Shown here: positions 6,078-29,524 of the stretch, in pieces | Layout: each line of letters starts with the position of its first letter | How positions within the stretch are numbered: the stretch's first letter is position 1 | DNA from: Chthonomonadales bacterium | Lineage (GTDB): Bacteria; Armatimonadota; Chthonomonadetes; Chthonomonadales; Chthonomonadaceae | DNA length: 29,524 nucleotides | Assembly: GCA_038217285.1 (NCBI GenBank) | Contig: JBBQPO010000040.1 | Span: forward strand, 1 to 29,524 | Reading direction: 5' to 3' | Notes under the pieces: generated by a model | Databases searched by the model: none | What the model was told of the DNA's origin: nothing | Seen by the model: the letters and a program-made list of their open reading frames with translations, nothing else | Program-made: the position numbers and the translations under genes

Positions 6078-6854
6078 CTACACATGCGTATTTGGGACAA
6101 TTGGCTGGTACAACTCAGTCGCGAAGGGGGTAAAACCAGCAGGCCAGCGCATTGTCATATTGCATAACAAGCGAAACTGGCTGGGAGCAGGAGCAGGGTT
6201 CACGCGTTCCACAGCGACAGTTACAGCATCCGTCAGGGGTAGATTTTCTGGATGTACTAACTGAAAAACGTCATCATTGAGGTAGCGAGGACAAAATCCT
6301 ACATTATAGACGTCGCCCGGCTCCTGTTCACTTGTACGCAATAGAAGCGCTTTTGGATCGTGCGCATTCTGAAAGTCATGCATGAGCAGTAATCGCTCGC
6401 CAGAACGCAGGTTCGCCGCGCGTTCCAAAGAACATGCTGGCATATGCCGCAGGCCATGCGCGAAAAAGTGAATGTGATACTCCCCTTTGCTATCCGGTGC
6501 GGGGCACGGAAAAACTTCAAGCGTATCTGTGGCCCGTTGACCCCCACTGCGTGCAAGCAGTGCGATGGGATCGTCCTCATGTTCAGCGACACTTAGCCAT
6601 TCGGTATATTCGGCATAATCCGGGCGTGAAGGCGGCATCAGGCGATTTGCGAACAGAGGAAAAAGTTCCGTAGAAACGTACGTTGCGGTAAGATTTGGGA
6701 ACGATAAAAACGGACAGAACCCGGCTTTCTCCGATGCTTCCTGAGCACCTTTTAAGTAGACAAATTGATATTCGTCTTCAACGAGATCCAGCCGCCCTAC
6801 CGGATACCAGGAACGCAGATGAGGATCGCGCCAAGTTAAGAATAATGCTTTCAT
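6078..6854 (-). CDS. HIRAN-domain protein with an N-terminal HipA-N/HipS-like region (putative antitoxin or sensor)
   Basis: WYPVGRL...YQFVY, LFPLFANRLMPPSRPDY and LARSGGQRATDTLEVF, followed by HIRAN-like FFAHGLRH...LLLMHDFQNAHDPKALLL...VGFCPRYL. ATGA overlap with the upstream kinase gene. Confidence 0.75.
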   Translation of the reverse strand: MKALFLTWRDPHLRSWYPVGRLDLVEDEYQFVYLKGAQEASEKAGFCPFLSFPNLTATYVSTELFPLFANRLMPPSRPDYAEYTEWLSVAEHEDDPIALLARSGGQRATDTLEVFPCPAPDSKGEYHIHFFAHGLRHMPACSLERAANLRSGERLLLMHDFQNAHDPKALLLRTSEQEPGDVYNVGFCPRYLNDDVFQLVHPENLPLTDAVTVAVERVNPAPAPSQFRLLCNMTMRWPAGFTPFATELYQPIVPNTHV

Positions 6855-7789
6855 TTAAGCTCCTCACCCAGGGCCAACAACCTAACCCGGTTAATATTCA
6901 GAATCTTTCGGGCAAAGTCAGCGGCGGGTTGTGTAATACGGTTTTCAGGTATCTGTTGAAAAGGCGCGACCATCTCGTCGGAAGTAATGCTTGCTAATCG
7001 TTCGAGCCATACGGAAGCAGCGCCTGGACTGCGTTGAGCCGCAAGGCGAAAGGCTTCTACCGTTTTTAGAGGTTTGTTGTCTTCCTGATTGAGATATAGT
7101 GCTGATGTCGCCTTCTTCGTATAGGCTTCGACGGTGTGGCCTTGATCTTTTGTATTCAAACGTTTCTGACGTTCACTGTCCAGCAGATGGCATCCCAGAC
7201 TCGACGCATGGTCATAAGTCGGCGCGAGGTAGCGCTGCGGAATGGGATTCAGCGGGCTTCCTGTGCGCTCTATTATCCCCCAGTTCTCATGGTGGCGATC
7301 CGTATTGCCAATCCAAGCATCCAATAACAAATAGCCTATAAAGAGGTCTTGTGCGGTTTCAATCCCAGGTAAAGGTATCCAGTCCGGCACTAAGCCTGCG
7401 CCACTCATCTGAATGTTACGCATCACAATGTCAAGGGTATGTTGCGACGTTCTGAAGTTAGAGACAACTCCCGGCGCAGGATAGTTTCTCACCTGAGCTA
7501 CGAGAAGTTCATTCCCAAGAATAAGCGATGTTCCCTGCGGTACAAAATTAGGCGTGATGGTACCTTTCTTGCCATCACAGACCGCAAGCTCATACCGAGC
7601 ACACGGTAAGCCCAGTTGCAAAGCCATTTGCTCTGCGATTTTTTCCGACCAGTCTTCTCCCGTGTTAGGACGAGCCGCTTTCCAAAGGCTACGCTCCAAC
7701 GCACCATTATGAAACCAAAACTTTTCTTTCGTTCCTAGATATTCTACGTCCTCGGCGGAACTTTCATTAACAGGCGTTACTGAGAACAT
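6851..7789 (-). CDS. HipA-like Ser/Thr kinase (HipA_C / CtkA-like)
   Basis: LGTKEKFWF, LWKAARPNTGEDWSEKIA, catalytic loop LLDAWIGNTDRHHENWG and Mg-binding LAPTYDHASSLG. Start re-placed at the ATG at 7789 (MFSVTPV...). Confidence 0.85.
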   Translation of the reverse strand: MFSVTPVNESSAEDVEYLGTKEKFWFHNGALERSLWKAARPNTGEDWSEKIAEQMALQLGLPCARYELAVCDGKKGTITPNFVPQGTSLILGNELLVAQVRNYPAPGVVSNFRTSQHTLDIVMRNIQMSGAGLVPDWIPLPGIETAQDLFIGYLLLDAWIGNTDRHHENWGIIERTGSPLNPIPQRYLAPTYDHASSLGCHLLDSERQKRLNTKDQGHTVEAYTKKATSALYLNQEDNKPLKTVEAFRLAAQRSPGAASVWLERLASITSDEMVAPFQQIPENRITQPAADFARKILNINRVRLLALGEELK

Positions 7790-8037
7790 TTCGTGTGACC
7801 TAAGGGAGCAATCGAGGAAATTAGGATAGGATATGGAAGGTAAGGACAAGGTACAGGGAGAGGCGTTAGGACATGCTGTGCTCGGAGTCGTTAATTCGTC
7901 ATCGCGTCTACAACTGATTTCGGGCGGAGCCAGGCCCTCCACCAAATTCCCCTTTGCATCCTGTCCCCACAGTTGAAATTGTACCCTTAAATTAAATATA
8001 TCCGTGCTGGTCCCACCACAAAAGCCGCCGCGAAAGT

Positions 8038-8067
8038 TTGACAGAAGGGGAGTGGCTCTGGTATCAT
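8038..8067 (+). promoter_or_regulatory. Sigma70 promoter with extended -10
   Basis: TTGACA (8038-8043), an 18-nt spacer ending TGG, and TATCAT (8062-8067). Confidence 0.6.
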
Positions 8068-8139
8068 AGCATGTTGTCTGTCTTGTTGACAGATCCGCCC
8101 ATTCTACCATTTCCGAGAATTCCTCCGAAGGAGTGTCCG

Positions 8140-22371: not shown

Positions 22372-23046
22372 ATGGACAGATTCGGAGCCGCATTGTTGTT
22401 GGGGTGGGGGCTGCTGTGTGGGCCACAGGCCGGGACGCCGAAGCCCGCTGCCACCCTCTGGCAGGCGACGGGGACGCTATTGGAGGTCTGCTCATGTCGT
22501 GTTCCCTGCCCTTGCAATTTCGGACAGGGTCCTTCCAACGACTACTGCCATACCGTCTATGCGTACCGACTGAAAACCGCCCGCTACGACGGTGTGACGC
22601 TGGACGGTCTGGTGTTCGGAGGAGGGGAAGGACCAAAAGGCGCGATGGGTTACCTCGATTCGCGCGCGGCCCCGGCCCAACGGGCCGCGCTGGAGAAGCT
22701 TGCCCTGGCCGTATACGGCAAAGGCGGCGCCTCGTCCGGCACGCGTGCCTTCACCTGGACCCGGATTGTCGCTGAAAGCGACCCGCAGCACTTCAAGATG
22801 GGGTTCGGGGAGACCGCCTCCATCTCCGCCAACATTCTGATCGGCCGGGACGGCAAGAACCCCATCGTGGTGGAGAACAATACCACCTGGCCTGTGCACC
22901 GTTTCATCAAAGGGAAGACCACCCGTTTCGACTACAAAGACAGCCTGGGAAACATTTTGCACTACGACGGTGTGAACGCCAATCTAGGCGAATTCAAACT
23001 CTCCAGCGATCAGGCTCTCCCGGCGGAAAAGCCGTGCTGTCGCTGA
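22372..23046 (+). CDS. Exported DUF1326-family putative metal-binding protein
   Basis: Signal-like N-terminus. Cys cluster LEVCSCRVPCPCNFGQGPSNDYCH, YDGVTLDGL, and YLDSRAAPAQRAALEKL. Confidence 0.8.
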   Translation: MDRFGAALLLGWGLLCGPQAGTPKPAATLWQATGTLLEVCSCRVPCPCNFGQGPSNDYCHTVYAYRLKTARYDGVTLDGLVFGGGEGPKGAMGYLDSRAAPAQRAALEKLALAVYGKGGASSGTRAFTWTRIVAESDPQHFKMGFGETASISANILIGRDGKNPIVVENNTTWPVHRFIKGKTTRFDYKDSLGNILHYDGVNANLGEFKLSSDQALPAEKPCCR

Positions 23047-23168
23047 AGCTGGCGGATTTCGGAGGCGGTCTTCGCGCTCTCCAAACGGAACATACCCGGA
23101 TAAGCACATTAGACTTATCCGGGCAGGCGAAGGTTCGAACCGTTGAACGTGGGAGCGGGGCAGACGGG

Positions 23169-23654
23169 TCAGTACTTCTCCCTCTCATAAGAGACGAACG
23201 TATTGTCCTCGACCTGACGGCGCTGCAGTTCCTGGACGAGTTCGTCCAGGCCGGAGTTTGCTTGCGCTTTGCTACCCGACTTCAACTGCGACAACACGAA
23301 GCCGACTGTCTGGCCGGTCAGGCGACGGGCGACATCGTCCATGACACCGGCAACCACCTCTGCCCGCGTTTTGGTCGGCTTGTAGTAGCCTTTACCGCCT
23401 TTGGGGCGGCGCTCGACTGTCAGCAGCCCTTTTTCCACCATGCGGCTGAGTGTCACGGCAATGGTAGAGGGCGACTGCATCTCGCGCTTCTCTGCGCGGC
23501 GCGAAAAGTGCATGGCCTCGTATACCTGCACGGAGGATTGCGGCTCACCCGCATCCCACAGGAGACGCAGAATATCACCTTCAAGAACGCCGAGGGAAGG
23601 CACATCGTCCCCGCCCACGCCGATATACTTGCGTCTTTTTTCCTTCGATTCCAC
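23169..23654 (-). CDS. BlaI/MecI/CopY-family winged-helix transcriptional repressor
   Basis: LGVLEGDILRLLW...SVQVYE...STIAVTLSRMVEKGLLTVERR...YYKP...RAEVV. Confidence 0.85.
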   Translation of the reverse strand: MESKEKRRKYIGVGGDDVPSLGVLEGDILRLLWDAGEPQSSVQVYEAMHFSRRAEKREMQSPSTIAVTLSRMVEKGLLTVERRPKGGKGYYKPTKTRAEVVAGVMDDVARRLTGQTVGFVLSQLKSGSKAQANSGLDELVQELQRRQVEDNTFVSYEREKY

Positions 23655-24170: not shown

Positions 24171-24746
24171 GTGTTAAACCTATCGGATAAGTCTCTGATT
24201 CAGTCCTGTCTTAACGGAGATAGACAGGCTTGGGACAGACTGATCCTGCGATATGAACGCCTGATCTACAATATCGCCTTACGGGCAGGCCTCTCTGCGG
24301 AAGACAGTGCGGACGTCTTCCAGGATGTCTGCCTGCAACTTATGAATAACCTCGAAAAGCTGACGGGCGACTTCAACGTTGCGGGTTGGCTGACACAGAC
24401 CACACACTGGGAATGCTTGCGTGTTCTGCGGAATAAGCGGCGCACCAGCTCTTTTACGGAAATGGAAGCCGAAGACGGGACCACTCCCATCAACCAGAGC
24501 CCCTCATTCGACCCGTTGCCCCTGGAAGTCATGCTGGTTCTGGAACAGGAGCAGATCGTTCGCAGCGCAATGGAAGAGCTTGGGGAGAGTTGCCGACGTC
24601 TGCTCATGCTGCTCTACCAGACCGATCCGGTGCCTTCCTACGCAGAAGTCGCACGTCAGTTCGATATCGTGGAGGGGGCGGTCGGTCCGAAGCGTGCCCG
24701 CTGCCTCAGCGGCCTCCGCAAAATTCTGAACCGTCGCGGCTTCTAA
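24171..24746 (+). CDS. ECF-type sigma-70 factor
   Basis: Region 2: DKSLIQSCLNGDRQAWDRLILRYERLIY...DSADVFQDVCL...GWL. Region 4: CRRLLMLLY...SYAEVARQFDIVEGAVGPKRARCLSGLR. Confidence 0.92.
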   Translation: MLNLSDKSLIQSCLNGDRQAWDRLILRYERLIYNIALRAGLSAEDSADVFQDVCLQLMNNLEKLTGDFNVAGWLTQTTHWECLRVLRNKRRTSSFTEMEAEDGTTPINQSPSFDPLPLEVMLVLEQEQIVRSAMEELGESCRRLLMLLYQTDPVPSYAEVARQFDIVEGAVGPKRARCLSGLRKILNRRGF

Positions 24747-25074
24747 TAGCTTCTCCTTCTTCGTAGGGCTGACGGCGCGGATCTCTTTACTTTGATGCGT
24801 TCCGAAGTCTGCTCTATAGGCCGCTTACGCCTACAAACGGTGTCCGTGCCTCTCCTTCCCGGTTCCCAATTCTCCTCTGATTCTCTCCTTTTCTGTCCCA
24901 AACGGCGCTAAAACGACGGATTTCGATCTATTTTCAAAAATAAGTGCCGACCCCCCGCATTTTTGAGCGATCTCGCGACTTATATATATAGGGGTAAATT
25001 TTTCAATAGCGATCTTAGCGGATCGTATCCCCGTGGCAAGACTGCCCGCTCCGGGATGTTAGGGAGAAGATAGA

Positions 25075-25668
25075 ATGCAGATTCGAGAACACATTGCAGA
25101 CGAAATGTTGTTGGATTATATCGAACAGCGTGGCGGTCTGGCAACGGAACGCAATGTCCGTGCACATCTGGCGACCGGCTGCGCCGAATGTCAGGACAGC
25201 CTGAACTACTGGCAGAAAATGCTCCGCGTCGTTCAGGATAAGACGATGACCACCCCGCTGCCCGTGCTGGAGCGTGCCTTCGCGCTGTTCGCAGAGCGAC
25301 AGGCCCCCGTATCCCTGCGACAGAGGGTGATGGCGACGCTACGGTTCGACAGCCGCGTTCAACCCGAACTGGCTGGCGCCCGTGATGGCGACCGAACCTC
25401 GTTCAAACTGCTCTTCGAAGCTCCGAACACCCGTATCGATCTGCTCTGTGAGCGTTCAGGTCCGGACTGGAGTATCGCTGGACAGGTTCTCTCTCTGGAG
25501 AGCAAGGACTACCTCTGGAAAGTGCTGGCAACCGGCACCGATAAGGTCGTTCGCACAGATGCCGATACGCTGGGTGAATTCCACCTGAGTGGACTGCGCA
25601 CCGGGGAGTACGATCTACTTCTGCAGGAACGCAGCCGCGAAATTACCCTGCCTGCCATTCAACTCTGA
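25075..25668 (+). CDS. Soluble putative anti-sigma factor: N-terminal zinc-binding (ZAS-like) domain plus C-terminal beta-sandwich (carboxypeptidase-regulatory-like) domain
   Basis: HIADEMLLDY...VRAHLATGCAEC (H...HxxxxCxxC). Linker LRFDS...LAGAR. C-terminus IAGQVL...DTLGEFHLSGLRTGEYDL. No TM helix. Directly downstream of the ECF sigma gene. Confidence 0.75.
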   Translation: MQIREHIADEMLLDYIEQRGGLATERNVRAHLATGCAECQDSLNYWQKMLRVVQDKTMTTPLPVLERAFALFAERQAPVSLRQRVMATLRFDSRVQPELAGARDGDRTSFKLLFEAPNTRIDLLCERSGPDWSIAGQVLSLESKDYLWKVLATGTDKVVRTDADTLGEFHLSGLRTGEYDLLLQERSREITLPAIQL

Positions 25669-25728
25669 TCCGCCTCTACTCTCTCTCTGCAAAGTAGAGA
25701 CAAGGGAATGCGCCCGTGACCGCTAACC

Positions 25729-25763
25729 GGGACTATCGCCTGACTATAGCAGGCGATAGTCCC
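25729..25763 (+). other. Perfect 14-bp intergenic hairpin between the anti-sigma and TPR-CHAT genes
   Basis: GGGACTATCGCCTG-ACTATAG-CAGGCGATAGTCCC, with no U-tract. Confidence 0.65.
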
Positions 25764-25814
25764 CCAAGTAGCCTACCGTTTGCTTCCATAATGTACGTCG
25801 AGAGGCCTGTATTT

Positions 25815-28670
25815 ATGCTCAATGACGCCGTGTTGCAACAGTTGAAAGACCTCCCTGCCGACCAACTGGCAGCGCATATTGCGTTGCTTGCCGCCGATAT
25901 TTCCGAGGCGGATGTTCAGCATTTGGCAGAGGCCGCGCGTAAGTTTTCGACGGATAACCCTGTCGAAGCCTTGCGCCTTGCCGAAATTGCGGTCCACATG
26001 GCAGCCTTCCTCAACACTGCTCGCCCGCGCGCGATCGCGCAGCGCGCCTATGGGGTTGCCCTGCGGGAGCAGGGGCAATGGGCCGAAGCCATCGCCTGCT
26101 TCGATGCTGGCGTCGAGGCGGCGATGGCCGCCGGAGACGCCCTGCTTGCGGCGCAAATCCCCATCGCAAAGATAGATACGCTTACCCATTTGGGTTGCTA
26201 TGACGAAGCGTTCGCTCTCGCCGGTACGCTTGCAAAGCAGTTAGAAACTCTGGGGTCTCCTGAAGACGCTGCCAAGGTGATGTGGAATGTCGGCAACGTT
26301 CACTTTCGGCAAGAATCGTATGCCCTCGCAGGAGAGTGCTGGCGTAAAGCCCTGGGCTATTTCGAGGCGCAGGGACAAAAGGTCGCGACGGCCCGACTGC
26401 AGATGAACATTGCCAACGTATTGACCCACCTGAATCATTTGCCCGAGGCCCTGGAGATGTTCCAGGCTGCCCGTTCGGCTCTGAGCGATACAAACACGGA
26501 CCGTACGATCGCGTTTCTTGACAGCAATATCGGTTTTCACCAATTTATGGGCGGTCGCTACACCGAAGCGCTGCAGTCTTATACCCGAGCGCGATACCGC
26601 CTGGTAGATCTGGCGCTCCCGCAAGAGGTCGCACAGTGTGACCGGGAAACGGCGGACGTCTATCTGGAGCTCAATCTGGTTCCCGAAGCGCGCGAGACGT
26701 TTGAACGGGTTATTCCGACATTCCAGCAGTTGAATATGACCGGCGAAGCGTCGCGCAGTGAGATGGGCCTCTCCCTTGCGCTGGCCTCCGAAGGCAGACA
26801 TGAGGAAGCGCTGCAGGCTCTGGAACGTGCAGAAAAGGGATTCCGAAAAGAGGGCAACCGGATCGGAGTAGCTCGGGCACGCCTGCAGCGGACCGAGTGG
26901 TGGCGCCGGGAGAACCCAGGGGGACACGGCAGCCCGGACGCTCAAGAGGAGGGACGGCAGCAGCGGGAGACTAGGGCGGCCTTACGCACCTTTCGCAAAC
27001 AGGGCGTCAAGATGGGGGTTTTGCAGTCTCGCTTGCATCTGGCGGAGATGAGGGTTGATCGCGGCGAAAGCCCGATCCGCATGTTGCGTTGTCTGTCTCA
27101 AGAAGCCGAGAAAGGATCGCTGATTGCGCTCCAGTGGCGTGTCGAGACCGCGCTTGCGCGCGCCTACATGAATGCAGGTCGCTGGCAGCTCGGCTTGAAG
27201 TACTACCGACGCGCGGTAGAAGCCGTCGAACGTGTGCGTCTGCTGCTCTATGGGGACGATTTCCGGGTGGCATTCCTGCAGGATAAGATGCGTCTCTACG
27301 AAGAGCTGCTGGCCCTCTTACTGGATCGCGGAACCCCGGCGGCTATTCAGGAGAGCTTCCAACTGGTGGAGCGTTCTAAATCGCGTACACTTCTGGAGCG
27401 GTTGGCGTCGATTCCGCGGGCCAGCGCCGATGCGACCGGAGCACAACAGGCCCGACTGACGCGGCTGGAAGAGTTGCGGAGCCAGTTGAACTGGGACTAT
27501 ACGCGTCTGGAGCAGGCCGCCGGGGACACCGTGCGCCTTTCCAATGCCGAAGCAGTGCCCTCGGAGCGTATTCAGGATCTGGAAACCGCCTACCTCCAGA
27601 CACACCGCGAACTCCAGATTATGGGAGATGGAACCGAGTTATCGCCGGATATGGACGCGGTCCGCATCCGAGACATCCAGAACCTGCTCACCGACGACGA
27701 GCAGATCGTCGAGTTTGTGACCATTCGTGACGAGGTGCTGGCGTTCGTCGTCAGTCGAACTCGTTTCCGTACATTCCGTTGTCTGGCGTCACGGACGGAA
27801 GTGGAAGAACTGGCCCACCGTCTGCGCTATCAATGGAACAAGTTCGGCCCGGTCGTGATGGAAAATGGCTATTCCGACCAGATCGCCGCTGCTACGGACA
27901 ACTTGCTCGTCTCCCTTTACGAACTGCTGATGGAGCCTCTGGAAGCGGAGCTTTCCTCGGCACGACTGACAATTATTCCCCATGGGACACTGCACAGTAT
28001 TCCGTTCCACGCACTGCGGACGGGAGAGGGCTATGTGCTGGATCGCTGGGAGGTCGCGTATGCGCCCAGTGCGGCCGTCTGGCGGTTCTGTCGCCTGCGC
28101 CCAGAGCCCCAGGGAGATCGGTCGCTTGTGTTCGGATTCAGTGACCCGGATATTGCGCATGTCCAGGAGGAGGTTGCCGCGCTCGCAGGTCTCTTACCCG
28201 CCGTGGACGTTTTTGAAAACGACGCCGCGAATCTCAACAATGTCCCGTCAGAGGGTTCCTATAAGTACCTCCACTTTGCAACCCACGCGATTTTCCGCAA
28301 GGACAACCCGCTCTTCTCCGGCCTCAAACTGTCGGATGGATGGTTGATCGCACATGACCTGTACCATCGTCGGCTCGACTGTTCGCTGGCGACCCTGTCG
28401 GCCTGCCGGACTGGCATGAGCGCTGTCGTTCCCGGAGACGAACTGCTGGGACTGGCGCGCGGTTTCTTGAGTTCCGGCGCTCGCGCCGTCATGGTCAGCC
28501 TATGGGCGGCCCATGACGAAGCGACCGCACAACTGATGGTGCAATGTTACTCCCGCATGGCGCAAGGCGCTTCGCGGGCCACGGCATTGCGAGAGGCGCA
28601 GCAGGCGGTGCGTAAACTCTATCCCCATCCTTACTACTGGGCCGCATTCGCACTCATCGGGGCGCGCTAA
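25815..28670 (+). CDS. TPR-repeat CHAT-domain (caspase/HetF-like, clan CD) protease
   Basis: Start re-placed at ATG 25815 (GAGAGG RBS). Long TPR-like helical array, then ERSKSRTLLE, IIPHGTLHSIPFHAL, YAPSA, HFATHA (catalytic His), LSACRTG (catalytic Cys), GLARGFLSSGARAVMVSLW, HPYYWAAF. No signal peptide. Confidence 0.93.
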   Translation: MLNDAVLQQLKDLPADQLAAHIALLAADISEADVQHLAEAARKFSTDNPVEALRLAEIAVHMAAFLNTARPRAIAQRAYGVALREQGQWAEAIACFDAGVEAAMAAGDALLAAQIPIAKIDTLTHLGCYDEAFALAGTLAKQLETLGSPEDAAKVMWNVGNVHFRQESYALAGECWRKALGYFEAQGQKVATARLQMNIANVLTHLNHLPEALEMFQAARSALSDTNTDRTIAFLDSNIGFHQFMGGRYTEALQSYTRARYRLVDLALPQEVAQCDRETADVYLELNLVPEARETFERVIPTFQQLNMTGEASRSEMGLSLALASEGRHEEALQALERAEKGFRKEGNRIGVARARLQRTEWWRRENPGGHGSPDAQEEGRQQRETRAALRTFRKQGVKMGVLQSRLHLAEMRVDRGESPIRMLRCLSQEAEKGSLIALQWRVETALARAYMNAGRWQLGLKYYRRAVEAVERVRLLLYGDDFRVAFLQDKMRLYEELLALLLDRGTPAAIQESFQLVERSKSRTLLERLASIPRASADATGAQQARLTRLEELRSQLNWDYTRLEQAAGDTVRLSNAEAVPSERIQDLETAYLQTHRELQIMGDGTELSPDMDAVRIRDIQNLLTDDEQIVEFVTIRDEVLAFVVSRTRFRTFRCLASRTEVEELAHRLRYQWNKFGPVVMENGYSDQIAAATDNLLVSLYELLMEPLEAELSSARLTIIPHGTLHSIPFHALRTGEGYVLDRWEVAYAPSAAVWRFCRLRPEPQGDRSLVFGFSDPDIAHVQEEVAALAGLLPAVDVFENDAANLNNVPSEGSYKYLHFATHAIFRKDNPLFSGLKLSDGWLIAHDLYHRRLDCSLATLSACRTGMSAVVPGDELLGLARGFLSSGARAVMVSLWAAHDEATAQLMVQCYSRMAQGASRATALREAQQAVRKLYPHPYYWAAFALIGAR

Positions 28671-28732
28671 ACCAGGAGGCGGAATCAAATGTCGCCCCTG
28701 TTACCTCCTGTATGCTGACTACAATAGTCGGT

Positions 28733-28750
28733 TGCGAAGTGAACTTCGCA
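28733..28750. promoter_or_regulatory. Inverted repeat upstream of the subtilase gene (candidate operator)
   Basis: TGCGAAGT-GA-ACTTCGCA, about 45 nt before the start codon. Confidence 0.35.
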
Positions 28751-28794
28751 CAGGAATATATAGTTCTCCGCTTCAGGAGATCAAGGAGACTGTC

Positions 28795-29524
28795 TTGCAA
28801 AAACGAATTTTTTCTCTGGCGCTGATGCTGGTACTGACTTGTATGGGAATGGCCTCTTATGCCATCGACTATGCTCCCAACGAGGTGCTGGTGCATCTGA
28901 AACCCGGTATGGACATCGTCGCCTTCAATCAGACCTTCAACACGACGACCCTCGCCGCATCGATCTATAACAACTCTTTCCGACTCGCATCTGTAGCGAG
29001 AGTGGATATTCCCACCCTGGTATCACAGATGACGATGGACAGTCGGGTGGCGTCGGCCAGTGTGAACCTCAATAATCGTGCCCTGGACACGGTCGTCACC
29101 GATCAGTTCATCTTTGCGGCGGATGCCGACGTAACTCATGCGAGTCAGTTCATCTTCGCAGCCGATCAGTACACCTTCACGAGTACGCAGTTCATCTTCG
29201 CGGCCGACCAGTTCATCTTCGCGGCCGACAGTAATCCCGGACTGTATGCCTACATGGGTCAATCGACTTCGTCGCTTATTCACTATGGCGCGACATCGAA
29301 GCGCTTCGACGGTAGGGGAGTTCTGGTCGCCGTACTGGACACCGGTATCTCAACGCGCAACGTCCTCCTCTCCTCCCACGTCACGACCGGATGGAACTTC
29401 GTGGACGGAAACAGCAATACGGACGACGTCCCTGCCGGTATCGACAGCAACGGCAACGGCGTCTTAGACGAATCTGCGGGGCATGGCACGATGGTCTCCG
29501 GCCTCATCAACCGCTATGCACAGG
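28795..29524 (+). CDS. Secreted S8 subtilisin-like serine protease, 3'-truncated by the window end (not in the ORF track)
   Basis: AAGGAG (28783-28788), then TTG at 28795; the frame stays open to the window end. Manual translation gives the signal peptide MQKRIFSLALMLVLTCMGMASYA, a propeptide (YAPNEVLVHLKPG...), a repeat insert, DGRGVLVAVLDTG (catalytic Asp), GWNFVD and AGHGTMVSGLI (catalytic His). Confidence 0.92.
   Translation, partial: MQKRIFSLALMLVLTCMGMASYAIDYAPNEVLVHLKPGMDIVAFNQTFNTTTLAASIYNNSFRLASVARVDIPTLVSQMTMDSRVASASVNLNNRALDTVVTDQFIFAADADVTHASQFIFAADQYTFTSTQFIFAADQFIFAADSNPGLYAYMGQSTSSLIHYGATSKRFDGRGVLVAVLDTGISTRNVLLSSHVTTGWNFVDGNSNTDDVPAGIDSNGNGVLDESAGHGTMVSGLINRYAQ
29104..29229 (+). 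repeat. In-frame 21-nt (7-aa) period array inside the subtilase: QFIFAAD-ADVTHAS-QFIFAAD-QYTFTST-QFIFAAD-QFIFAAD
   Basis: QFIFAAD copies at 29104-29124, 29146-29166, 29188-29208 and 29209-29229. The two intervening units are each exactly 21 nt. Confidence 0.92.

Follow-up and report, generated by a model that had tools for sequence, protein, structure and literature searches.

Gene neighbourhoods that combine a sigma factor of the extracytoplasmic function (ECF) class with caspase-like TPR-CHAT proteins have been catalogued for the group ECF54, in which, according to the supplement of Casas-Pastor et al. 2021 (PMC7826278), a carboxypeptidase-regulatory-like protein is always encoded at position +1, with subtilases and TPR-CHAT proteins nearby. 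The same supplement lists ECF54 as 100% Actinobacteria, with a 'lack of putative AS factor' (anti-sigma factor) and with a promoter consisting of GTATCAG (−35) and CTCC (−10). Regulation by proteolysis is proposed for ECF54 in the portions of PMC8999054 and PMC7826278 available to us, and the latter states that the ECF54 neighbours may be regulators or targets. DdvA of Myxococcus xanthus, the structure of which has been studied, is described in the accessible parts of PMC11506125 and PMC6061681 as a transmembrane anti-sigma factor fused to a periplasmic, dimeric TPR-CHAT module, and is called by its authors the only characterised anti-sigma factor with such a domain (PMC11506125). In CRISPR-linked systems, as far as the available text of bioRxiv 10.1101/2023.06.23.546230 goes, Csx29 cuts Csx30 and thereby frees CASP-sigma, and CalpL cuts CalpT. 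Here we describe a stand-alone cassette of four genes, encoding an ECF sigma factor, a candidate soluble anti-sigma factor, a TPR-CHAT protease and an S8 subtilase, at the 3′ end of a 29,524 bp stretch of DNA (the window) from a Chthonomonadales bacterium of the phylum Armatimonadota (assembly GCA_038217285.1).

The combination of genes is already known, having been catalogued around ECF54; what is new is the +1 gene as a hidden anti-sigma candidate, the phylum and the peptide array of the subtilase. An earlier note on this DNA, made by a model from the letters alone, had mentioned similar quartets in other phyla with no mechanistic description. Quartets do occur elsewhere; the second half of that statement has to be modified, as the neighbourhood is catalogued for ECF54 and DdvA/DdvS have been studied structurally, so far as the cited sources were available. 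No publication dealing with how the stand-alone cassette works came up in literature searches.

A conserved cassette of four genes

The assembly consists of 459 contigs (6.2 Mb), and the window is the entire contig C40, which four co-oriented + strand open reading frames (ORFs) close at the 3′ end, as the earlier note had seen and as the ORF listing and family matches bore out. The first (24171–24746, +; 191 aa) encodes an ECF-type sigma-70 family sigma factor, with a Sigma70_r2 match at E 2.2e-10 (Pfam) and a score of 74.1 bits over residues 20–185 with TIGR02937 sigma70-ECF (NCBIfam; cut-off 42.9). By its small size and TIGR02937 coverage it is an ECF (group 4) protein, Pfam at E ≤0.01 showing region 2 only. 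A gap of 328 bp (24747–25074) separates it from the gene of the soluble anti-sigma-like protein (25075–25668, +; 197 aa), recognised by a family profile and an AlphaFold2 (AF2) model. The TPR-CHAT caspase-like protease, identified by CHAT and TPR family matches, follows at 25716–28670 (+; 984 aa counted from a GTG, Met34 at 25815 being a possible alternative start), and the N-terminal 263 aa of the S8 subtilase, identified by a Peptidase_S8 match on the fragment, lie at 28732–29523 (+), open at the contig end.

The earlier note had made its proposal depend on the four genes recurring together elsewhere, which they do: all four were present at 17 of the 20 loci fetched around anti-sigma matches, and they are co-inherited (see below). 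The order and orientation of the window were found in 14 of the 17 complete loci; L028 has another gene order, and in L036 and L039 the sigma gene is divergent. Two loci, L024 and L037, end at contig ends, and L041 shows no sigma gene. Within the same order, the anti-sigma gene was present in 30 of 61 genomes, the genome of the window (G000) being counted. That genome carries a second, paralogous quartet on contig C10 (L001, 4521–11493, − strand), the proteins of which share 41% (sigma), 32% (anti-sigma), 37% (CHAT) and 28% (S8) identity with those of the window cassette (W); as in L024 and L029, an extra gene for a DUF4382/DUF5666 lipoprotein-like protein lies there between sigma and anti-sigma.

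Relatives of the CHAT protein were found at 566 places in contigs representing one genome per species. The 80 best of these were kept, seven of them being the same records as loci fetched earlier, and they came from Armatimonadota, Acidobacteriota, Chloroflexota, Verrucomicrobiia, Eiseniibacteriota and others. Among all 80, an anti-sigma gene was detected at 64 loci, an S8 gene at 63 and both at 57, with a sigma gene by hidden Markov model (HMM) at at least 30 and all four genes at at least 27. For the 59 loci with enough flanking sequence the respective numbers were 54, 52 and 50, and at least 29 and 26. The sigma counts are lower bounds, since at six Chloroflexota loci (L073, L080, L088, L090, L105 and L120) a conserved gene of 228–294 aa without a Pfam match precedes the anti-sigma gene, and the sigma profile matches only two of these six upstream proteins (E ~1e-8). 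The S8-like genes of these Chloroflexota loci are without a recognisable DTG motif by the pattern used.

Quick gene trees, with Shimodaira–Hasegawa-like approximate likelihood ratio (SH-aLRT) support only, recovered the clade of W, L022, L023, L025 and L045 for all four genes (SH-aLRT ≥95), and smaller clades were common to them as well; the four genes thus travel as a unit. Two deep lineages of the cassette can be distinguished, and G000, the same-genus genome G002 and G022 each carry one cassette of each. The flanks consist of housekeeping genes that differ between relatives. The quartet is a conserved, vertically inherited and self-contained unit.

These data bear on an anti-phage or stress suicide module resembling Craspase or SAVED-CHAT, in which an invader would trigger the CHAT protease and the sigma factor would turn on defence genes. 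Such a role is suggested by the defence link of all characterised CHAT–sigma pairings, as given in the available parts of PMC11506125 and bioRxiv 2023.06.23.546230, and by the two paralogous cassettes in several genomes. However, no PADLOC model matched the sigma, anti-sigma or CHAT proteins (the sole match was a generic one to the subtilase at E 8.4e-6), the flanks are housekeeping genes that vary between relatives, the common clades of the four trees speak for genes travelling as a unit, and the constant partner is an exported protease and not a toxin. We consider a defence module improbable.

The candidate anti-sigma factor and the TPR-CHAT protease

The 197-aa protein on its own gave no Pfam match, and its sole NCBIfam match was a weak one to RsrA (E 8.3e-4), below the cut-off. 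A family profile built from 21 cassette copies was searched against 1.84 billion cluster representatives and matched 9,958 proteins at E ≤0.001, of which 227 reached E ≤1e-30, some of the matches being giant proteins aligned via the C-terminal domain only; the family statistics given here rest on 124 full-length members. Pfam recognised zf-HC2 in 29 of these, the protein of the window not being among them, and CarboxypepD_reg in 28. When the family profile was compared with the PDB, positions 4–83 matched RsiW (1.9e-4), 3hug_B (6.2e-3), ChrR (9.6e-3) and DdvA (8rlz_A, 9.9e-3), and positions 134–188 matched the carboxypeptidase-regulatory-like repeats of NOMO2 (E 4.2e-10).

The domain order is thus that of an N-terminal helical domain with a putative zinc motif, a linker and a C-terminal CarboxypepD_reg-like beta-sandwich. 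The zinc motif (HLATGCAEC, 25165–25191, +) reads H31-x4-C36-x2-C39, with H6 upstream. His31, Cys36 and Cys39 are each kept in 123 of the 124 members, the H-x4-C-x2-C spacing in 115, and an extra ligand about 25 residues before the motif is Cys in 79 members and His in 41 (His6 in the window), the complete set [C/H]...H-x4-C-x2-C being present in 120. In the AF2 model (predicted local distance difference test, pLDDT, 89.8), four helices (9–73) are joined by a linker (74–82, pLDDT ~60) to the beta-sandwich (83–196), the first strand of which is formed by a conserved A-x-L-x-F-D and the first loop by S-R-x4-5-A-G-A-R. Asp92 is found in 119 and Arg103 in 121 of the 124 members, and the family alignment places the LRFDS strand and the SRxxxxLAGAR loop of the window protein at 25339–25389 (+). 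Foldseek with this model gave no match at E ≤0.001, ChrR appearing at rank 27, and the wide fold search VIA was filled by generic beta-sandwiches over 83–197 (Z ≤8), the helical N-terminal domain being effectively outside its reach.

Taken together, the family signatures and the model indicate that the 197-aa protein is the hidden zinc-finger-type anti-sigma factor of the cassette. The earlier note had called it a zinc anti-sigma factor without a transmembrane (TM) helix. The absence of a TM helix was confirmed, the top Kyte-Doolittle mean over 19 residues being 0.48, and the family does carry anti-sigma zinc-finger signatures; the spacing, however, is a variant of HxxxCxxC and not the canonical one.

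The CHAT domain of the protease (PF12770, E 5e-62) extends over residues 732–983 and is accompanied by many TPR matches (Pfam). All 19 aligned relatives keep H853, H857 and C897. His857 (28284–28286, +) and Cys897 (28404–28406, +) are taken as the candidate dyad, an assignment made by position and not from structure. The protein shows no hydrophobic N-terminus, so that the intact dyad and the absence of an export signal reported in the earlier note both stand. Against the PDB, the TPR-CHAT profile matched NprR (E 6.1e-6) and RapJ (E 5.8e-6) among many generic TPR matches, the protein itself being without a helix-turn-helix. In L033 (4417–7345) and L047 (4423–7354) the CHAT gene consists of two overlapping ORFs; a frameshift, a pseudogene or faulty assembly could account for this.

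Several observations connect the protease with the 197-aa protein. At several loci (e.g. L001, L026, L027 and L030) the two ORFs share 4 nt, and translational coupling of the protease gene to that of the anti-sigma protein is frequent. Among the pairwise identity matrices, those of anti-sigma and CHAT show the closest correlation (r 0.85, a value inflated by relatedness). A predicted complex of CHAT residues 185–984 with anti-sigma residues 83–197, a structure prediction the earlier note had called for, scored 0.42 (runs 0.43, 0.42 and 0.42) as against 0.00 for the best of three controls; the runs shared at least 75% of their contacts, and the pLDDT of the partners was at least 76. In the benchmark of this score, 116 of 157 solved complexes passed the mark, as did 2 of 215 mismatched pairs; those passing at scores ≤0.60 were just 18 of the 157 solved complexes, together with both mismatches. 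The prediction weakly suggests that CHAT may contact the C-terminal part of the anti-sigma protein.

The following mechanism is proposed, its steps being given in the order of our confidence in them. The zinc-finger helical domain of the 197-aa protein would hold the sigma factor in the cytoplasm. The cytoplasmic TPR-CHAT protease would use the beta-sandwich with its nearly invariant LxFDSR....AGAR as its handle or its substrate. With less confidence, a cytoplasmic cue sensed by the long TPR array may activate the His/Cys site, and the anti-sigma factor may then be cut and degraded, releasing the sigma factor. The last and least secure step would be that the released sigma factor brings about higher expression of the exported subtilase, which is the cassette's constant output. 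As a whole, the proposal that cleavage of the anti-sigma factor by TPR-CHAT frees a sigma factor which raises the subtilase has, in our estimate, an even chance of being correct.

A number of points weigh against this proposal. The CHAT:anti-sigma score falls in the weak band of the benchmark; the linker 74–82, poorly conserved and of low confidence, contains no conserved cleavage motif; and the conservation of LRFDS may be purely structural, as the model makes this stretch a structural strand within the sandwich. No fusion of anti-sigma to CHAT or of sigma to anti-sigma was seen among the longer proteins (three passed, all of them multi-CarboxypepD_reg proteins), which is weak evidence. Throughout the clade of the window, 300–330 bp lie between sigma and the other three genes, so that the sigma gene and the other three possibly do not form one transcript. 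The 328-bp gap may hold an internal promoter; its 3′ portion is conserved in an alignment with the same-genus orthologue, and an Rfam scan of the window gave no match.

Furthermore, no promoter motif shared by the upstream regions was found, and the autoregulation of the sigma factor and its control of the S8 gene are therefore without sequence support. The published ECF54 motif, searched in the relaxed form GTA[TA][CT]-N14-22-CTCC in the 300-nt upstream regions, was absent from all loci (0/38; shuffle mean 1.2). A two-block Gibbs sampler applied upstream of the sigma genes reached 9.21 bits, compared with 8.66–9.29 in three shuffles. Exact two-block words, an AAC...CGT pattern and a GGAAY-anchored inspection upstream of the sigma genes likewise gave nothing above chance, and among upstream 7-mers with one mismatch the best occurred in 18 of 28 sequences, equal to the shuffle maximum of 18. 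A scan for sigma-70 promoters and terminators yielded no usable output.

Zinc-finger anti-sigma factors can also answer redox changes without any protease. The 197-aa protein might itself be a redox or metal sensor of the RsrA/ChrR kind, with CHAT and subtilase as outputs of the regulon and not as regulators of the sigma factor. In favour of this are the ligand set, complete in 120 of 124 members, the profile matches to redox and stress zinc-binding anti-sigma (ZAS) proteins, and the remark on ECF54 neighbours in the available part of PMC7826278, which allows for targets as well as for regulators. A sensor of this kind, however, leaves unexplained why a beta-sandwich with a nearly invariant loop is always present on the anti-sigma protein, why its gene is frequently coupled translationally to that of CHAT, and why these two proteins show the tightest co-divergence and a weak predicted contact. 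We rate this explanation as unlikely, though less so than a defence module, and prefer release of the sigma factor by TPR-CHAT.

The subtilase, its heptapeptide array and other features of the window

The fragment of the subtilase in the window matches Peptidase_S8 at E 3.1e-7, the full-length orthologues at E 1.7e-45. The probable start is the TTG at 28795, with AAGGAG upstream; counted from there, the N-terminus is positively charged, then hydrophobic, and is followed by ASYA. The hydrophobic segment fits a signal peptide, and the subtilase is predicted to be exported. The topology is common to the window and 19 loci across phyla: an anti-sigma protein without TM helix, a CHAT protein without N-terminal signal and an S8 protein with a hydrophobic N-terminus. 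Besides the signal-like segment and the pro-domain, the fragment contains the repeat array and, of the catalytic residues, Asp203 and His251. An alignment of 20 subtilases has invariant or almost invariant D, H, N and S columns, and the S8 triad with the oxyanion Asn is thus recognisable. The AF2 model of a full-length orthologue consists of a signal-like helix, a confident pro-domain (40–105), a disordered stretch (108–185, pLDDT <50) and a confident catalytic domain.

Positions 1–570 of contig C123 (L122) open with 189 aa that align with residues 274–459 of the orthologue at 74% identity and carry the Asn and the Gly-Thr-Ser serine. As the window fragment ends about three residues earlier in orthologue numbering, C123 probably continues the window subtilase after some three missing residues, and the downstream sequence called for in the earlier note is in all likelihood that of C123, across a join that we infer. 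The next gene on C123 encodes a PSCyt1/PSCyt2/PSD1 protein, unrelated to the gene after the orthologous subtilase. Since the downstream genes of C123 and of the orthologous locus differ, the boundary of the cassette is placed directly after the subtilase; the difference marks this boundary and is not independent proof that C40 and C123 are adjacent.

Between pro-domain and catalytic domain the subtilase of the window carries a heptapeptide array at 29104–29229 (+; Tandem Repeats Finder, period 21, 4.2 copies). By sequence and codon table it contains four exact QFIFAAD units (29104–29124, 29146–29166, 29188–29208 and 29209–29229, all +), one decayed unit, QYTFTST (29167–29187, +), and one 7-aa spacer. 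The export-type N-terminus and the QFIFAAD repeats described in the earlier note were thus both found. A six-frame search found the exact heptapeptide nowhere else in the genome. A motif of the form [Q/P]-hydrophobic-x-hydrophobic-x-[F/A/W]-Asp, with invariant Asp, lies between pro- and catalytic domains in all 20 aligned cassette subtilases and, as judged by eye, is not present in the four other DTG-bearing S8 genes of the genome. The copy number varies: the window has four exact copies and one decayed, QFIFTAD occurs in six copies in L022, five in L042 and four in L023, TWTYSFD in four copies within 31-aa units in L027, QLAFAFD in two copies in L041, and a related hexamer in two copies in L054 and L057 (Acidobacteriota), most other cassettes having a single copy of one motif.

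All 19 copies of W, L022, L023 and L042 read QFIF[A/T]AD, and six of their seven codons show synonymous variation (codon 4 is TTT in 8 and TTC in 11 copies, codon 7 GAT in 10 and GAC in 9, with four different codons in use for Thr and four for Ala). As the peptide is kept while its codons differ freely, each copy is under selection for the peptide sequence. At position 5, Ala stands in 4 of 4 window copies and Thr in 15 of 15 others; the copies thus change in concert. On the evidence of these alignments, HEPTAPEPTIDE in the subtilase is a selected element, which is a new observation, and it is amplified in several lineages. In metagenome run X2, one low-depth contig goes back 33 bases at 29188–29220 with 9 letters between, a step that, in a related strain, corresponds to one further repeat unit of 14 aa, and in run X1 the loose end of a low-depth contig reads a QFIFTA-type unit.

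A nearly invariant Tyr lies eight residues downstream of the heptapeptide motif. By comparison with subtilisin, we assume that this Tyr may be the autoprocessing site; if autoprocessing occurs there, the motif belongs to the pro-peptide tail. The simplest reading makes the heptapeptide a portion of the pro-peptide tail, close to the autoprocessing junction; it may act as an inhibitor strand, a sorting or processing signal or a released peptide.

The last of these would allow a feedback of the quorum-like or self-reporting kind, as put forward in the earlier note, in which the pro-region is a multi-copy precursor from which the exported subtilase itself, or a different protease, frees QFIFAAD-type peptides outside the cell, and a freed peptide is re-imported and bound by the TPR array, turning on CHAT and leading to cleavage of the anti-sigma factor, a positive feedback. 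The presence of the Asp-ending motif throughout the cassette subtilases and, by eye, not in the four other S8 genes, its amplification in the several lineages listed above, the constancy of 19 copies despite synonymous codon drift, and the location of the array in a region modelled as disordered in the orthologue, with one extra unit on the metagenome contig of a relative, are all in keeping with such a loop. Yet most cassettes have a single copy of the motif, which a structural or processing function suffices to explain; the peptide is exported, its sensor being cytoplasmic, with no peptide permease among the window ORFs scanned; and the NprR and RapJ matches (E ~6e-6) sit among generic TPR matches. 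A peptide loop thus has, in our opinion, a slim chance of being real.

Elsewhere in the window, a DUF1326 protein (+) and a BlaI/CopY-family repressor (−) are encoded just 5′ of the cassette (22372–23654), with no evident link to it. Two genes at 6078–8110 (−) lie in a low-GC island (GC 0.49–0.51, compared with ~0.6 elsewhere), and both match the PADLOC candidate defence system PDC-M03 (A, E 1.7e-110; B, E 9.7e-92), the B-type protein also carrying a HIRAN domain.

Comparison with known systems

With respect to ECF54, as far as described in the available material, the window offers the same neighbourhood: a sigma factor, a CarboxypepD_reg-like +1 protein, TPR-CHAT and a subtilase. It differs in that the host belongs to Armatimonadota, where it groups with metagenome-assembled genomes of Chthonomonadales, and not to Actinobacteria, that the +1 protein shows anti-sigma signatures and that the ECF54 promoter was not detected. 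Because of the non-actinobacterial host and the missing promoter, we file the cassette as an ECF54-type neighbourhood and not under the ECF54 group, a label that rests on the published neighbourhood description and not on ECF group sequence models.

The ZAS proteins RsiW, ChrR, RslA and RsrA likewise have an N-terminal helical domain with His/Cys ligands, and ZAS proteins gave the best PDB profile matches; the cassette protein departs from them by H-x4-C-x2-C instead of H-x3-C-x2-C, by its solubility and by a C-terminal domain of the CarboxypepD_reg-like type. Yeast alpha-factor comes from a multi-copy peptide precursor that is processed by the subtilase-type protease Kex2, and TPR proteins sense peptides in the RRNPP family. 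The cassette shares with these systems tandem identical short peptides in an exported precursor and a cytoplasmic TPR protein, whereas its repeats lie within the pro-region of the protease itself, and release, import and binding are hypothetical here. The selected and amplified heptapeptide is nevertheless a concrete candidate for a ligand or a processing signal, and if the peptide loop were true, the cassette would be a peptide-gated caspase-like sigma switch with its signal encoded inside its own output protease.

The DdvS/DdvA pair, to the extent covered by the sources cited above, resembles the cassette in its ECF sigma factor, the zinc-bound N-terminal anti-sigma domain (profile match to 8rlz_A, as given above) and a TPR-CHAT module with a His/Cys dyad. 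DdvA, however, is a single transmembrane protein that controls a CBASS-CRISPR island (CBASS, cyclic oligonucleotide-based antiphage signalling system), whereas here separate genes encode soluble proteins, together with a subtilase and without a defence island. With Craspase (Csx29, Csx30, Csx31 and CASP-sigma), again as described in the available text, the cassette has in common a cytoplasmic TPR-CHAT protein that cuts, or here would cut, a partner which sequesters, or here would sequester, a sigma factor. Craspase needs Cas7-11 and a target RNA, and in the window the Csx29 model scored 49.3 bits on the TPR-CHAT protein against a cut-off of 300, the candidate anti-sigma factor combines a ZAS-like domain with a beta-sandwich, and the scan of 23 ORFs turned up no Cas family, in agreement with the CRISPR-independent setting put forward in the earlier note. 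The link to Csx29/Csx30 is one of analogy. The CalpL/CalpT/CalpS system and SAVED-CHAT with PCaspase and PCc-sigma similarly use a protease that releases or cuts a sigma or anti-sigma factor as output (bioRxiv 10.1101/2023.06.23.546230, in the part available), but are driven by cyclic oligoadenylate and employ other protease and sensor domains, no SAVED domain being present here.

If the proposed mechanism is true, the cassette would be the simplest natural protease-gated sigma switch, of a kind so far known only from CRISPR-linked systems and from DdvA, and one that stands alone and has spread over several phyla; the two insulated paralogous cassettes in one genome would constitute a natural specificity experiment. 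The 197-aa protein would then supply the very component, an anti-sigma factor, that ECF54-type sigma factors are listed as lacking.

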